From an uncultured delta proteobacterium (GTDB taxonomy: Bacteria > Desulfobacterota > Binatia > Binatales > Binataceae): a DNA stretch of 64,000 nucleotides. Position 1 is the first letter of the stretch, and every line of letters starts with the position of its first letter. The DNA lies in assembly GCA_963774665.1 (NCBI GenBank), contig CAVZGB010000021.1, forward strand, positions 255,467 through 319,466, written 5' to 3'. Made by a program: the position numbers and the translations under genes. Under the pieces are notes generated by a model. It saw nothing but the letters and a program-made list of their open reading frames with translations. It did not search any database and was not told the DNA's origin. Shown here piece after piece: positions 31,646-41,049 of this stretch.

Positions 31646-31936
31646 ATGAGCGAAAGCAAGCGGTTCGATCAGGAACAGATGCGCGGTGCCCGGTTTTGCG
31701 GATGCGGTCTGGCGCAAGCCGAATTTGACGACGTGGACTTGGCTGATTCCAGATTTACTAACGTAAATTTGCGCCAGTCGTCATTTACAAACATAAATCT
31801 GGAGGGCGCCAAGCTCACCGACGTCAATCTCGCCCATGTCAGCATCGACAACGCGAACATCAGCGGCCTGACGATCCTCGGTTGGAATATCGCTGACCTG
31901 ATCAAAGAGGCGCAGCAAAAAAAGAGTTCAACTTAG
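31646..31936 (+). CDS. Pentapeptide-repeat protein
   Basis: Tandem A(D/N)LxX pentapeptides (DLADSRFTNVNLRQSSFTNINLEGAKLTDVNLAHVSIDNANISG). RBS GAGGAGG precedes the ATG at 31646. Confidence 0.7.
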   Translation: MSESKRFDQEQMRGARFCGCGLAQAEFDDVDLADSRFTNVNLRQSSFTNINLEGAKLTDVNLAHVSIDNANISGLTILGWNIADLIKEAQQKKSST

Positions 31937-32817
31937 GACACTCCCCTGCGCTTGCCCTTCGGTGCGCCCTGCCCCGCGCCGCGATTCCCCCGCGGCTTCG
32001 TCAGCATCGCTAGGATTCGTGACAACGTGAAACGCATCTGATGGCGCGGGACGATCGCGTCGAGCATCCCGTGCGCAAGGAGGAACTCGGCGCGCTGGAA
32101 ATCGTCGGGCAGTTCCTGATTGCTGGTCTGCGCCGTCACCCGCCGGCCCGCGAAACCGATCAGCGCGCCCGGCTCGGAGATATTCAAATCGCCGAGCATC
32201 GCGAACGACGCCGCCACGCCGCCTGTCGTGGGATCGCACAGCACGGAAATGTACGGCAGGCGCGCGTCGCGATATCGCGCGATCGCCGAAGATACTTTCG
32301 CCATCTGCATCAATGACAGCGGACCTTCCTGCATTCGCGCGCCCCCCGACGCGACAAATATGATCACCGGCAGCTTGCGCTCGCATGCGATATCGAAAAG
32401 CCGCGCGAGCTTCTCGCCGACTACCACGCCCATGCTGCCGCCCATGAATTCAAAATCCATCACGCCGAGAGCCACCGGCCGATTCTCGATCTTGCCGATC
32501 CCCACCACCACCGCGTCGTTGCGGCCGCTGTTCGCGCGCGCCTGTTCCATCCGCTTCGGATACGGCCGCGAATCGACGAAGCCGAGCGGGTCGCCAATCG
32601 CCATCTCGACCATCAGCTCGCGCCAGGTCCCGCGATCGACGCTGATCGAAAGCCGCTGCGGCACCGTCACGCGGAAATGATATCCGCACTTCGGGCACAC
32701 GTTCAGATTGCGCTCCACTTCCTTGCGGAACGCCATCTCCTTGCACGACGGGCACTTCGACCAGATGTCGTCCGAGGGGGCCTGCGTCGTAACCGGCGTC
32801 TGTTCCCGTTCAGCCAT
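31933..32817 (-). CDS. accD: Acetyl-CoA carboxylase carboxyltransferase beta subunit
   Basis: Zn-ribbon CPSCKEM…CPKCGYH plus the carboxyltransferase domain. The start overlaps the trpA stop. Confidence 0.9.
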   Translation of the reverse strand: MAEREQTPVTTQAPSDDIWSKCPSCKEMAFRKEVERNLNVCPKCGYHFRVTVPQRLSISVDRGTWRELMVEMAIGDPLGFVDSRPYPKRMEQARANSGRNDAVVVGIGKIENRPVALGVMDFEFMGGSMGVVVGEKLARLFDIACERKLPVIIFVASGGARMQEGPLSLMQMAKVSSAIARYRDARLPYISVLCDPTTGGVAASFAMLGDLNISEPGALIGFAGRRVTAQTSNQELPDDFQRAEFLLAHGMLDAIVPRHQMRFTLSRILAMLTKPRGNRGAGQGAPKGKRRGVS

Positions 32818-33662
32818 CAGAATTCTCCGCCACGGGCGTTTGCTCGGTGCGTCGCGCCGACTTCATCGCATCCTTCATCGCGCCGACCAGACCGCCCACC
32901 GCCATCCGGCACGTCGCCGGACTTCGCATGCTCTTCGATCAACAATGAAATCGCGCTGCCTACCACCACCGCATCCGCCATCCTCGCGACTTCGGCAGCC
33001 TGCTCAGGCGTCGAGATACCGAAGCCAACGCCAATCGGCAAATCGGTCACGCTGCGAATCTCGCGCATGTGCTCGGCAATGCCGGTGTCGAGATGCGTCC
33101 GCGCGCCGGTCACACCAGTCACCGACACATAATAGAGAAACCCGCTGGCGGAGCGCGCGATCGCGCGACTTCGGTCGATAGGCGTCGTGGGCGCGAGCAG
33201 GTAAATCAGGTCCAGCCCGTTGGCGCGCGCCGGCTTCTTGAGCTCGCCGGACTCTTCAGGCGGCAAATCGATCACCAGCAACGCGTCGATACCCGCACGC
33301 GCAGCGTCTGCGCAGAGCCGCTCGCATCCGTAGTGAAAAATCGGGTTGTAGTAGCCGAACAGGATCACCGGAATCTGCGTCTGCGCGCGAAGCTCGCTCA
33401 CCATCGAGAGTATCGCTGCCAACGACGCGCCCGCGCCGAGCCCGCGCGCCAGCGAGCGTTGATTGGCGGGTCCGTCGGCCATCGGATCGGAAAACGGCAC
33501 ACCCAGCTCGATCAAGTCGGCGCCGCGCGCCTCGAGCTCGAGCACCAGCTTGCGCGTCGTATCCATATCGGGATCGCCGGCCACGATGAACGGGATCAGC
33601 GCCGCCTCGCCGCGCGCGCGCAGCTCGCGAAACTTCCGTTTGATTCTATGCGCCGCTGCCAT
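32810..33662 (-). CDS. trpA: Tryptophan synthase alpha chain, with an apparent frameshift about 25 codons before the C-terminus
   Basis: …ALIPFIVAGDPD…GVPFSDPMADGP…. The tail reads naturally (…GLVGAMKDAMKSARRTEQTPVAENSDG*) only in the -1 frame, which then overlaps the accD start. Confidence 0.8.
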
Positions 33663-37242: not shown

Positions 37243-37857
37243 TGCGCGGTTCCGTTTTTGTCGAGGCTGTCGAGAAAGTTTTGCAGCAGATGCTTTCCCT
37301 CGAACGTCAGAATCGATTCGGGATGAAATTGCACCCCTTCGACTGCGTAATGCTTGTGGCGAAGCCCCATGATTTCGTCTTCCGCCGTGCGGGCACTGAC
37401 TTCCAGTGCCGGCGGAATCGACGCCGCGTCAACCAGCAGCGAATGATAGCGCATCGCGTCGAACGGGCTCGGGATGCCCTGCGAAAATCGTCTTGCCGTC
37501 GTGGATTATCGGCGACGTCTTGCCGTGCATCAGGCGATCGGCGCGCACGACTTTGCCGCCGAACGCCTCGCCGATACATTGCAGGCCGAGGCACACGCCG
37601 AGAATCGGCAGTTCACCCGCCATCTCGCGCAGCAGAGTCAGCGAGATTCCGGCCTCGGTGGGAGTGCATGGCCCGGGCGAGATTACGACCGCCGCGGGAT
37701 GAAGCGCGCGAACGCCGGCGACGTCGATCGCGTCGTTGCGCCTGACGATGACGTCGGCGCCGAGTTCGCCGAGGTACTGCACGATGTTGTAGGTAAACGA
37801 GTCGTAGTTGTCGATCATCAGCACTCGTTTTTTAGTGTTTGACGCCATCGTGATCAC
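37239..37857 (-). CDS. trpG: Anthranilate synthase component II (glutamine amidotransferase), frameshifted near 37465 as assembled
   Basis: The N-terminal ORF carries catalytic …ILGVCLGLQ… and ends …GKTIFAG. The second ORF continues with …RYHSLLVD…GVQFHPES…. One extra base in a CCC run (plus-strand 37477-37479) explains the break. Confidence 0.8.
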
Positions 37858-39359
37858 CTCTTCGCCGCGGTTTCGAAATCGCGCGCGGCCTGGAGTGCCC
37901 GCACCATTGCGCGAGCCTTGTTCACCGACTCCTCGAACTCGGCGCCGGGGTCAGAATCTGCGACGACGCCGCCGCCTGCCTGGATGTACACGCGGTCCTT
38001 CTTGATCAGCAGCGTGCGCAGCGCGATCGCGGTGTCGGTGTTGCCGGTGTAGCTGAAGTAGCCGACCGCGCCCGCATAGACGCCGCGACGCACCGACTCG
38101 AGCTCGTCAATGATTTCCATCGCGCGGATTTTCGGCGCGCCGGAGACTGTCCCTTGTGGAAAGGTCGCGGCGAACGCGTCGAACGCGTCGCATCCTTCGC
38201 GCAGCACGCCGGTGACGTTCGACACGATATGCATCACGTGCGAGTAGCGCTCGACCACCATCAGCTCGGTCACTTTCACCGAACCGATTTCAGAGACGCG
38301 GCCGACGTCGTTGCGCCCGAGGTCGACCAGCATCACGTGCTCGGCGCGTTCCTTTGGATCGGCGAGCAGCTCGGCTTCGAGTTCGCGGTCCTCGGCCTCG
38401 GTCACACCGCGGCGGCGAGTGCCTGCGATCGGCCGCAGCGTGATCTCGCGACCCTCGACTCGCACCATCACCTCAGGCGACGCGCCGACCAGCGTCTGAT
38501 CGCCCAAGCGCAGGTAGAACATGTACGGCGACGGGTTAATCGTGCGCAGGCTGCGGTAGATATTGAACGGATGCGCGGTGAGAGGCGCTTCAAAGCGCTG
38601 CGACGGGACGACCTGGATAACGTCGCCGGCCGCGATGTATTCCTTCGCGGCGGAGACCATCGCCATGTAGCCTTCGCGCGTCATGTTCGAGGTGATCGAC
38701 GTGTCGTTGATCGCGACGTTGCTCGCGCCTTCGAGAAACGGCGGCACGGCGGGACGCTTGAGGCGCTCGATTATCTCGTCGATCTTAATGCGCGCGCTTT
38801 GATACGCCATTTTCGTCGAGGCGAATTCCTCGACCGGCACGTTGGCGATAATTTTGAGCGTCTGGCGGACGTTGTCGAAACACAGCACCGTGTCGGTGAA
38901 CATCAGGTGAAAATCCGGAGTGCCGAGATCGTCGGTGGCGGTTTCGGGAATCTTCTCGAAACATCGCACGATGTCGTAAGCGAGAAATCCGACGGCGCCG
39001 CCGAAGAAGCGCGGCAGGTTGGGCAGCTCGGGGGCGCGGAAGCGCTTGACCTCGGCGCGCAACTCCTCGAAGGAATTCTCGACCGAGCGCACCTCGACGC
39101 CGCGGCCGGGCCGGATGATATCCATGCGGTTCTTACGCGCGCGCATGACGAGGAAAGGATCGGAGCCGAGGAAGGTGTAGCGGCCCCATTTCTCGCCGCC
39201 GCGAACGCTCTCGAGCAGGAAGGCGTAATCGTCGCGCGCGATTTTGAGGAAGGCGGAGACCGGAGTCTCGAGATCGGCGGCGACCTCCTCGAAAACCGGG
39301 ATGAGGTTGAATCCGTCAGCCGCCAGTCGTTCGAATTCTTTTTCCGTTGGCTGCAACAT
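37854..39359 (-). CDS. trpE: Anthranilate synthase component I
   Basis: 501 aa. Chorismate-binding domain …[12 protein letters not shown]…GAVGYFSY…. Confidence 0.95.
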
Positions 39360-39393
39360 CTAGTTTGCCTCTGTTACGTCCGACTCCATCACT

Positions 39394-39435
39394 CCAAAAA
39401 GAAAAGGGCCGCAGGTTTCGCCTGCGGCCCTTTTT
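39394..39435 (-). terminator. Intrinsic terminator of the trp attenuator (GGGCCGCAGG-CGAAA-CCTGCGGCCC followed by UUUUCUUUUU on the minus strand)
   Basis: Perfect 10-bp GC stem, 5-nt loop and U-tract. Lies about 35 nt upstream of the trpE start and 27 nt downstream of the leader-peptide stop. Confidence 0.7.
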
Positions 39436-39456
39436 AAAAATCGGTTTTGCGATGAA

Positions 39457-39537
39457 CTACAAAGCCGGCGCGCAGGCGGGTGCATCGAGGTGCCAGCGCC
39501 ACCATCCCGCGCAAACATTTCGGCTCATGAGATTCAT
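39457..39537 (-). CDS. trpL: trp operon leader peptide (MNLMSRNVCAGWWRWHLDAPACAPAL*) with three Trp codons in a 4-codon stretch
   Basis: 26-codon ORF between the upstream gene's stop and the attenuator terminator. TGG TGG CGC TGG falls at codons 12-15. The CGCCTGCG segment in the ORF can pair with CGCAGGCG in the terminator's left arm, giving an antiterminator. Confidence 0.55.
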   Translation of the reverse strand: MNLMSRNVCAGWWRWHLDAPACAPAL

Positions 39538-39544
39538 CTTGGGG

Positions 39545-40270
39545 TTAATCATGATGGCGAGTCAGGTGCTTGTCAACTGGATGAGCCGTCCCGACTACTC
39601 CGAGGGTGAAGTTCAGGGTGGTGAAGTATGGGACGAAGAGGCCGCCGGATTCGGTGACGTCGAAGTAGCGCGCGATGCGTTCGATCATCAGGCGGTCGTC
39701 GAAGCCGGTGTGTTCGTGACGCGGGATTTTGTCGGTTTGGCTTAGCGCGCCTGCCACCAGGTCGCGCCAGGACAGGCGGTCGCCGTACATCCCAAGCGCA
39801 CGGTAGCCGAGTTGCTTCGCTACCAGCATCGCGCCGCGCTCGACCGGGATAGTGAAGAACACCGGGCCGCGCACGACGCGCGCGAGAAGCCGCAGATAGC
39901 CATCGACGTGTTCGTCGGGAAGGTGCTCGAGCGTCTCCATGCAGATGCCGACGTCGAAGGTCGCCGACAGGTCGATGTCGGATGGCGATTTCGATTTCAT
40001 GATCGCCACTTCGGAGCGCGTGGCCCATTGCGCCTTTACCCAGTCCAGGATGTCGTCGTCGGCCTCGTAGCCGACGTATCGGTTGACGGCAATACCGCTG
40101 CGCTCGAGGTAGGAGATCGTTTTTGCGTCGTAGCATCCGATTTCGATTATGTCGGCGCGGCGGATGTTCAGCCGGCGCAATCGATCGACGAGCCACCAGA
40201 AGCGGCGCTCGTGCAGGAAGCGGCGCGCGCGATTACCGTTAAAGAGACTATCGTTGTAGGTGTCGGGCAT
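39545..40270 (-). CDS. Class I SAM-dependent methyltransferase (putative)
   Basis: Rossmann-like …IIEIGCYDAKT…VGYEADDD… and LEHLPDE. The start is taken at MPDTYND, because the first 28 codons of the track ORF run through the AT-rich palindrome. Confidence 0.5.
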   Translation of the reverse strand: MPDTYNDSLFNGNRARRFLHERRFWWLVDRLRRLNIRRADIIEIGCYDAKTISYLERSGIAVNRYVGYEADDDILDWVKAQWATRSEVAIMKSKSPSDIDLSATFDVGICMETLEHLPDEHVDGYLRLLARVVRGPVFFTIPVERGAMLVAKQLGYRALGMYGDRLSWRDLVAGALSQTDKIPRHEHTGFDDRLMIERIARYFDVTESGGLFVPYFTTLNFTLGVVGTAHPVDKHLTRHHD

Positions 40271-40271
40271 T

Positions 40272-40349
40272 AGTAGGACGAAATTTATTTCGTCGATTCC
40301 GATTTGACGGAATAAACTATTTATTTGACGGAATAAATTCCGTCCTACT
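40272..40349. promoter_or_regulatory. AT-rich dyad-symmetric element: 22-nt imperfect inverted repeats (GTAGGACGAAATTTATTTCGTC … GACGGAATAAATTCCGTCCTAC) flanking a direct repeat TTTGACGGAATAAA x2
   Basis: Seen directly. About 30% GC in a genome that looks 60-65% GC. Lies between the SPOR-protein gene stop and the methyltransferase start. Confidence 0.5.
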
Positions 40350-40350
40350 G

Positions 40351-41049
40351 TCAATGCGAGGTCGTGTAGGCCTGCTTGTATTGTTCGCGCAGTTGGTTTT
40401 GTGCGGCGTTGGCTTCGTCGGCGCTCGCATAAGGGCCGACGCGGACGCGATACCAGACCCCGCCGTTGAGCGCGGTTTTCACTTCCTGCGCGTTGTAGCC
40501 AAGGCCCTTCAGCCGCGAGACCATCTCGTCCGCCCCACTCTTGTCCATCACGGCTTCGATCTGAATGTTGTAACCCTTGGAGCCGGGAGGAAGAGCGCGC
40601 GGCGGTGCGGTGGGCGCCGAGGCTTCCTCGGTATCGTCTTCGGTGTCCTCATCAGATGGAGGGTTAGCCGCAGGCGCCACGGCCGGCGGTCTGATGCGTG
40701 CGACGGCGGCCGGTGAAGTTCGCGCTGCGGGATGCGCTTCGCCGATTGCGGGCGCTGGCGGTTTGACCGGCTCATGCGGGATGGCGGGCACGGCGGCCCG
40801 CCCCACTGATGGCGGCACCGACGCGACCGCAGGCGACGCGGCGGCCGCCGGCGACATCTCGGATACCGGAGGCAGCTTTTCAGGGGGATTCGGCAGCGGG
40901 TAGGTCGAAGAGATTTGACTCACGTCGGGCTGCGTCTGCCGCGCCATCTCGTAGCCCGCGACCAGTCCCAGCGCGAAGACCGCACCCGAGAGTCCGACCA
41001 ATCCGGCTAGAATCAGAAACCCGCCGCCCGCCCTGATTTCGAATCGCAT
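40351..41049 (-). CDS. SPOR-domain cell-division protein (FtsN/DedD-like): N-terminal transmembrane anchor, Pro/Ala-rich linker, C-terminal SPOR
   Basis: C-terminal …GYNIQIEAVMDKSGADEMVSRLKGLGYNAQ…GVWYRVRVGPYASADEANAAQNQL. Lies downstream of argS, as is typical. Confidence 0.75.
   Translation of the reverse strand: MRFEIRAGGGFLILAGLVGLSGAVFALGLVAGYEMARQTQPDVSQISSTYPLPNPPEKLPPVSEMSPAAAASPAVASVPPSVGRAAVPAIPHEPVKPPAPAIGEAHPAARTSPAAVARIRPPAVAPAANPPSDEDTEDDTEEASAPTAPPRALPPGSKGYNIQIEAVMDKSGADEMVSRLKGLGYNAQEVKTALNGGVWYRVRVGPYASADEANAAQNQLREQYKQAYTTSH

Follow-up and report, generated by a model that had tools for sequence, protein, structure and literature searches.

A probable leader-peptide attenuator at the head of the trp operon in Binataceae

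Leader and terminator ahead of trpE

We analysed a 64,000-nt stretch of DNA (the window) from an uncultured delta proteobacterium that GTDB assigns to the family Binataceae (assembly GCA_963774665.1, contig CAVZGB010000021.1). On its minus strand, a short Trp-rich open reading frame (ORF) followed by an intrinsic terminator lies directly upstream of trpE (Table 1). Pfam assignments revealed the operon order trpE-G-D-C-F-B-A, with a gene of the PALP family (pyridoxal-phosphate-dependent) in the trpB slot. A single leader stands ahead of the whole pathway, and the genes behind it make the very amino acid that is sensed. From these features we propose that the leader is, with high probability, a ribosome-mediated (leader-peptide) transcription attenuator of the Binataceae trpE-G-D-C-F-B-A operon.

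Table 1. Features of the trpE leader region in window coordinates
Feature	Position	Strand	Remarks
-35 hexamer TTGACA, predicted	39571..39576	-	consensus scan; within the methyltransferase ORF that lies upstream, at its 3' end
-10-like hexamer CATGAT, predicted	39548..39553	-	ends 10 nt ahead of the leader ATG
Leader peptide ORF (trpL-like), MNLMSRNVCAGWWRWHLDAPACAPAL	39457..39537	-	26 codons + TAG
Segment 1, GCGCGGG + UGGUGGCG	39497..39512	-	partner of segment 2; under the ribosome stalled at the Trp codons
Regulatory codons UGG UGG CGC UGG (Trp12, Trp13, Arg14, Trp15)	39493..39504	-	
Segment 2, core CGCCUGCG (39478-39471), then GCC, CUUU	39461..39484	-	partner of segment 1 or 3
Weakened stop-codon hairpin, CGGCUUUG...CAAAACCG	39442..39467	-	one C-A mismatch in the window
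Intrinsic terminator (3:4)	39396..39434	-	14-bp stem, loop CGAAA, U-tract UUUUCUUUUU
Segment 3, AAAGGGCCGCAGGCG	39419..39433	-	terminator 5' arm and first loop bases; antiterminator partner of segment 2
GAGG, likely trpE ribosome-binding site	39368..39371	-	8 nt ahead of the ATG; putative
trpE, anthranilate synthase component I	37854..39359	-	501 aa; Pfam Chorismate_bind 2e-95, Anth_synt_I_N 2e-37

The leader ORF was read from the ATG at 39537 to the TAG at 39459-39457. Two further in-frame ATGs near its start were rejected as start codons: the one at 39552 falls within the -10 hexamer, and the one at 39528 is not kept in close relatives, which have T or S at codon 4. Over both strands of the window, the leader is the sole ATG-initiated ORF of 10-60 codons that packs three or more Trp into five codons; in 100 first-order Markov simulations of the window, such ORFs numbered 0.25 on average.

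A sequence-only reading of this locus had described a 26-codon minus-strand ORF carrying TGG TGG CGC TGG and a terminator behind it, and both are present. The terminator is indeed a perfect hairpin, with the core GGGCCGCAGG-CGAAA-CCTGCGGCCC at 39430-39406 and the 3' arm CCUGCGGCCC at 39415-39406. The flanking AAAA and UUUU lengthen its stem to 14 bp (39434-39402), after which the U-tract runs to 39396. The spacer between the leader stop codon and GGGCC measures 26 nt, however, and not the 27 nt given in that reading. The U-tract ends 36 nt before the trpE ATG at 39359, where the earlier estimate was about 35 nt. Likewise, CGCCUGCG is complementary to CGCAGGCG (39426-39419) as had been proposed, but it covers leader codons 20-23 instead of 19-22, and it ends 12 nt ahead of the stop codon. 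Folding of the terminator hairpin alone yielded -26.3 kcal/mol, and the 201-nt leader folded with a z of -3.0 against dinucleotide shuffles.

In addition, a second ATG ORF of 52 codons crosses the leader and the terminator in another frame and stops right at the trpE ATG (39360-39518, minus strand). This ORF is probably non-coding, because three related loci (L001, L093 and L110) carry an extra 100-170 nt between the terminator and trpE.

Conservation of the leader in related loci

A comparison with 185,579 species representatives revealed that the closest TrpE sequences belong to three metagenome-assembled genomes (MAGs) with 81, 76 and 75% identity, followed at some distance by a next best sequence of about 55%. 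Two of the three MAGs are labelled Candidatus Binataceae and the third 'Proteobacteria bacterium', which places the source of the window among the Binataceae relatives (Binatota). A metagenome scan, for which the TrpE N-terminus served as query and the presence of a leader was not presupposed, added 30 loci of 67-97% identity. Three of these are cut off too near trpE, leaving 27 contigs that were judged together with the three MAGs. These 30 related loci comprise 28 distinct sequences, which after removal of duplicates were aligned with the window to give an alignment of 29 distinct leaders, termed A3.

All 30 judged loci combine the same predicted promoter with a terminator and, between the two, a leader ORF in which Trp codons cluster, and thus the relatives keep the tandem or clustered Trp codons together with the hairpin, the pattern by which the sequence-only reading had set an attenuator apart from a plain terminator. 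The leader peptides of the three MAGs are MKDSTYRRAWASWRWRHVAPVCAPVL, MYCEIRTAWATWRWNIGAPAWAAVS and MRCEISTARAAWRWDVGAPAWAAVS, each encoded between a predicted TTGACA promoter and a terminator. The Trp clusters of the relatives take the forms WWRW, WAxWRW, WAWRW, RRWW, RWWW, SWRW, DWRW and WxSWPW. All 29 aligned leaders contain the ORF in the same frame and with the same geometry. The regulatory columns hold UGG-CGY-UGG or UGG-UGG-UGG in 28 of them, with the Arg codon amid the Trp codons varying synonymously between CGC and CGU. The last Trp codon is separated from the stop by exactly 11 codons, again in 28 of the 29, and the stop codon itself is UAG, UAA or UGA in identical alignment columns. 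No indels occur between the Trp codons and the stop, although they are present elsewhere, including the variable N-terminal part of the leader peptide. The C-terminal half of the peptide is conserved as A-P-A-C/W-A-P/A-x-x. Selection apparently acts on the geometry of the translated frame and not on the peptide, because the stretch from the Trp codons to the stop is free of indels and fixed at 11 codons while the stop codon and the Arg codon change silently.

A consensus scan placed a sigma-70-like site, TTGACA-17-CATGAT, at 39576-39548 with a score of 10/12; three sites this good occur in 5 kb against 1.2 expected. The TTGACA is invariant in all 29 leaders and keeps a constant distance to the leader ATG. 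The distance from the -10-like hexamer to the ATG is 7-14 nt with a mode of 10, and a Shine-Dalgarno sequence is generally absent ahead of the leader ORF. The site would thus act as the promoter of the leader and set a transcription start that leaves a predicted 5' untranslated region (UTR) of about 1-5 nt in the window. Since the ATG follows the -10-like hexamer so closely and lacks a Shine-Dalgarno sequence, translation of the leader ORF is predicted to take place on an mRNA that is almost leaderless, presumably in the manner of the leaderless rnTrpL of Sinorhizobium meliloti, on whose analogy this translation is assumed.

The gene upstream of the leader is a methyltransferase-like ORF (39545-40354, minus strand), which ends in a stop codon at 39547-39545. 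About 110 nt separate that stop codon from the hairpin downstream of it on the same strand, so that the hairpin might be read as the plain intrinsic terminator of the methyltransferase gene, next to an ORF that is rich in Trp by chance. The weak Rfam matches of the region all resemble a terminator alone, in agreement with such a reading, and the hairpin may well also block read-through from upstream. However, among the compared loci the methyltransferase precedes the leader only in the window and in L081. At many loci argS and a SPOR-domain gene are followed directly by the leader, at others unrelated upstream DNA is found, and the other relatives keep the leader and terminator beside trpE all the same. 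The leader adjoins trpE at every compared locus despite the changing upstream gene. In addition, the leader ORF has a promoter match of its own ahead of it, 30 of 30 relatives retain the reading frame with its Trp codons, and chance would supply such an ORF in the window only rarely. Because the leader stays with trpE as its neighbour changes and its TTGACA does not vary, the hairpin is more than a terminator for the gene upstream of it; the synteny and the predicted promoter ahead of the leader ORF rule out the narrower reading, and we regard a plain terminator beside a chance ORF as scarcely credible. The methyltransferase gene itself, which stands between the SPOR-domain gene and the leader, looks like a recent insertion, its 3' end now overlapping the predicted leader promoter, because the window and L081 alone possess it whereas most relatives have the order argS, SPOR-domain gene, leader.

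Alternative pairings and the proposed switch

The ribosome was represented in the folds by a footprint of assumed size (-15 to +14 nt relative to the first base of the A site), and the switch was folded on transcripts cut before the terminator 3' arm or before segment 3. Without a ribosome, the window transcript cut before the 3' arm adopted the 1:2 pairing at -40.6 kcal/mol through the helices GCGCGGG:CCUGCGC and UGGUG:CACC, leaving the 5' arm of the terminator free. When the A-site was placed at any of the three UGG codons in a transcript ending in the terminator loop, the 2:3 antiterminator formed instead at -25.4 kcal/mol. It consists of CGCCUGCG:CGCAGGCG together with GCC:GGC and CUUU:AAAG, and it uses up 39433-39419, for which the terminator 5' arm competes; the two structures are mutually exclusive. 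A ribosome placed at the stop codon covers segment 2 and leaves the arm of the terminator unpaired. The mutually exclusive 1:2/3:4 and 2:3 folds anticipated by the sequence-only reading were therefore reproduced in the window, and the 1:2 and 2:3 pairings were recovered in all 29 leaders.

Similar behaviour was found throughout A3. When the transcript is cut at the stop codon, all 29 leaders pair their segment-2 core with upstream partners that lie under the Trp-stalled footprint. Placing the ribosome on the Trp codons makes 2:3 the fold of lowest energy in every one of the 29, and segment 2 then takes up 7 or more of the 10 terminator-arm bases at -20 to -35 kcal/mol. A ribosome at the stop codon leaves the terminator arm essentially free, with no more than 3 nt paired upstream, in 23 leaders, the window included.

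The column counts of A3 agree with these folds. For the terminator (3:4), 93.3% of the cells are paired, compared with 38-63% in slid controls, and six pairs have changed on both sides. The antiterminator (2:3) has 86.2% of its cells paired against 44-55% for slid controls, with four pairs changed on both sides, which bears out the earlier expectation that the alternative pairing would be conserved. The stop-codon hairpin, described below, reaches 81.5% against 25-45%, with five such pairs. Column 146 contains only A or G and faces a U both in the antiterminator (UA 14, UG 14) and in the terminator (AU 13, GU 10), as expected for a base that pairs in two structures. RNAalifold recovered the terminator from the whole alignment and the 2:3 core from a truncated one. 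For 1:2 it gave a weak helix of 4-6 bp alone, because segment 1 is out of register between the WWRW group (GCGCGGG) and the WAxWRW group (GCUUGGGCG); the 1:2 pairing was judged sequence by sequence and not by column counts.

A further hairpin encloses the end of the leader ORF. Its family form is CGGUUUYG-UAR...CRAAACCG (A3 columns 94-101 with 118-125), in which the leader stop codon begins the loop, and one of its pairs shows a compensatory change (UA 14, CG 7). The hairpin is intact in most relatives and is nested within the antiterminator in 15 of the 29 leaders. In the WWRW subgroup, to which the window belongs, it is weakened and a longer 2:3 helix takes its place. The hairpin could serve as a clamp that joins segments 2 and 3 and is melted by the terminating ribosome alone, and a role as a pause or timing element is also possible. 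A pause of this kind would be expected around the conserved AAACCGAUUU.

Based on the anatomy and the folds, we propose the following course of events. Transcription would start a few nucleotides upstream of the leader ATG, and as the polymerase advances, segment 1 with its Trp codons would pair with segment 2. A ribosome on the 26-codon leader would then set the outcome. When charged tRNA-Trp is scarce, the ribosome would stall at UGG UGG CGC UGG and cover segment 1, so that segment 2, free about 3 nt past the front edge of the ribosome, could pair with the nascent segment 3. The 2:3 pairing would take the 5' arm of the terminator, and the polymerase would read on into trpE. When Trp is plentiful, the ribosome would reach the stop codon, 11 codons past the last Trp, and cover the 3' half of segment 2; segment 3 would then pair with segment 4, and transcription would end at the U-tract (39405-39396). 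In this course we infer the Trp-dependent read-through, the kinetic competition and the geometry of the ribosome footprint.

Alternative hairpins alone do not reveal what selects between them. TRAP or T-box leaders control trp operons in other bacteria, and a TRAP-like protein, a T-box or other riboswitch, or Rho might in principle act here in place of a stalling ribosome. However, T-box and all other Rfam families stay below threshold in the window, T-box giving no match at the gathering score there, nor at E <= 10 in the leader. Apart from the hairpins, conservation extends only to a translatable ORF, to its Trp codons and to the fixed 11-codon distance from the last Trp to the stop, which are the needs of a ribosome sensor and not those of a protein or ligand sensor. 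The full U-tract, moreover, means that Rho is not required. On the Rfam scans and these conserved features, sensing by such a protein, riboswitch or factor is extremely improbable in our judgement.

A different possibility is that the leader acts chiefly in trans, as a small RNA or small protein like rnTrpL and peTrpL, with the cis control of trpE incidental or secondary. The predicted promoter and terminator would delimit an RNA about 145 nt long, the peptide is conserved in its C-terminal half, and a precedent exists in the leaderless trp attenuator RNA of S. meliloti with its functions in trans (PMC6614838). Against this, segment 2 occupies exactly the conserved C-terminal codons, and RNA pairing therefore explains the conservation of the peptide. 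The element is always directly upstream of trpE, and the folding logic with its three states is preserved across the 29 leaders. A role in trans would supplement cis attenuation, not supplant it, and on these cis features we consider a chiefly trans-acting leader very unlikely.

Several observations weigh against ribosome-mediated attenuation as the function of this leader. At equilibrium, the full transcript always yields the terminator, even with the stalled-ribosome block in place, so full-leader equilibrium folding was discarded as proof of the switch. Because the terminator wins under these conditions, the model fits a kinetic switch in which the folds of the nascent transcript would be decisive. 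Without a ribosome but with segment 3 present, the equilibrium favours 2:3 in 15 leaders and 1:2 in 13 of the 29, and therefore the order of synthesis must matter. With the ribosome at the stop codon, six of the 29 leaders keep 4-6 nt of the terminator arm paired upstream. The support for the antiterminator is mostly conservation and wobble-compatible change, not true covariation, because its 8-bp core is nearly invariant across A3 and hardly varies enough to covary. Its pairs changed on both sides were no more numerous than in shuffles (70 of 500 reach the observed value), and neither were its further pair types (405 of 500). No Rfam model, Trp_leader included, recognises the element. No Shine-Dalgarno sequence is recognisable ahead of the leader ORF, whose predicted 5' UTR measures a few nucleotides, and therefore its translation would rely on a putative leaderless-type initiation.

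The last such observation concerns the operon itself. In the window, trpG is broken across two frames, at 37857-37429 and at 37454-37239 (minus strand). Comparison of TTCGCAGGGCATCCC in the window with TTCGC(N)GG(N)AT(Y)CC in five relatives revealed one extra G in a G-run near 37476-37478. This 1-nt frameshift is either an assembly or homopolymer error or genuine; if it is real, the operon may be decaying. Past trpA come an accD-like (carboxyl transferase) gene and then a Mur-ligase/folC-like gene (region 31933-33662, minus strand), and PMC6614838 describes the same order, trpFBA-accD-folC, in S. meliloti.

Comparison with known trp attenuators

Rfam did not place the element in a known family. 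The Trp_leader model (RF00513) gave no match even at E <= 10 over 38800-40200, and no Rfam family reached its gathering score anywhere in the 64-kb window. The best match, BjrC68, scored 25.3 bits against a threshold of 39 and aligned to the terminator alone. The element is accordingly outside the Trp_leader sequence family, though it would work alike. To our knowledge, no gene regulation in Binatota or Binataceae has been described to date, and a limited literature search, covering Binatota attenuators and phylum-wide surveys, returned no paper on attenuation in Binatota. Our analysis would extend leader-peptide attenuation, with its geometric rules intact, to the Binatota and Binataceae, an uncultured lineage of soil and peat. 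The mechanism is a textbook one and its understanding is unchanged; the lineage alone is new. Such attenuators escape annotation based on Rfam, and the 29-sequence alignment is a potential seed for a new RNA family model. The leader is also a likely case of a leaderless regulatory ORF.

Leaders of a similar kind were also observed further afield. A Binatia MAG (L012) carries another leader, MRTNTGWWRLPVTQRLRHG (GWWR), about 130 nt upstream of trpE, followed by a hairpin GGGGCCATAGG...CCTATGGCCC and a T-run. In Smithella/Syntrophales MAGs (L006, L009 and L013), two terminator-like hairpins with U-runs, one after the other, stand between a leader ORF with WWW or WWWW and trpE. The L012 leader suggests that this more distant Binatia lineage relies on Trp attenuation as well, its leader being unrelated in sequence. 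Because Trp-rich leaders and terminator-like hairpins precede trpE in all four of these MAGs, the device is by this evidence widespread beyond the classic phyla.

The TrpL leader ORF of E. coli has 14 codons and a WWR motif, and the E. coli attenuator is likewise understood as a kinetic switch. Similar to it, the Binataceae leader has a short ORF with adjacent Trp codons beside an Arg codon (here GWWRW), the alternatives 1:2, 2:3 and 3:4, a terminator just before trpE, and a trp operon for the whole pathway. The E. coli-type architecture assigned to this locus in the sequence-only reading is thus supported by anatomy, folding and conservation. There are also differences. The leader here is longer, with 26 codons and three Trp codons; its stop codon lies past segment 2 and not between segments 1 and 2; and its 5' UTR is, by prediction, almost absent and free of a Shine-Dalgarno sequence. 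The Rfam Trp_leader model detected no homology in sequence or structure to the E. coli trp leader at E <= 10. The mechanism of the E. coli trp attenuator is summarised in PMC6614838.

The trpL/rnTrpL of S. meliloti is a ribosome-dependent attenuator with three stem-loops directly upstream of trpE(G), and rnTrpL is a leaderless RNA made from an RpoD-like promoter up to an intrinsic terminator (PMC6614838). The predicted near-leaderless geometry of the Binataceae leader resembles it, although no sequence similarity to the S. meliloti trp leader was detected. The two also differ in scope: in S. meliloti attenuation is confined to trpE(G), with separate operons for the other trp genes, whereas here one attenuator heads trpE-G-D-C-F-B-A. 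Functions in trans of the RNA and the peptide were shown for S. meliloti; for the Binataceae leader such functions are hypothetical. That the Binataceae leader represents a separate, phylum-specific design and not a plain copy of the four-segment E. coli scheme, near-leaderless and with a stop-codon hairpin as a fifth conserved element, whose RNA of about 145 nt or whose peptide may act in trans, seems to us rather unlikely.

Classical trp attenuators have also been predicted by comparative genomics in Actinobacteria, including Corynebacterium and Streptomyces (PMC1262725), which cites Vitreschak et al. 2004 for the corresponding predictions in alpha-, beta- and gamma-proteobacteria. The predicted attenuators consist of a leader ORF with a run of UGG codons, a GC-rich terminator with poly-U, and conserved GC-rich triples common to antiterminator and terminator (PMC1262725). 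The Binataceae leader differs from them in its phylum, the uncultured Binatota (PMC8262859). Its triple CGCCUGCG / CGCAGGCG / CCUGCGGCC nevertheless behaves like those predicted GC-rich triples.

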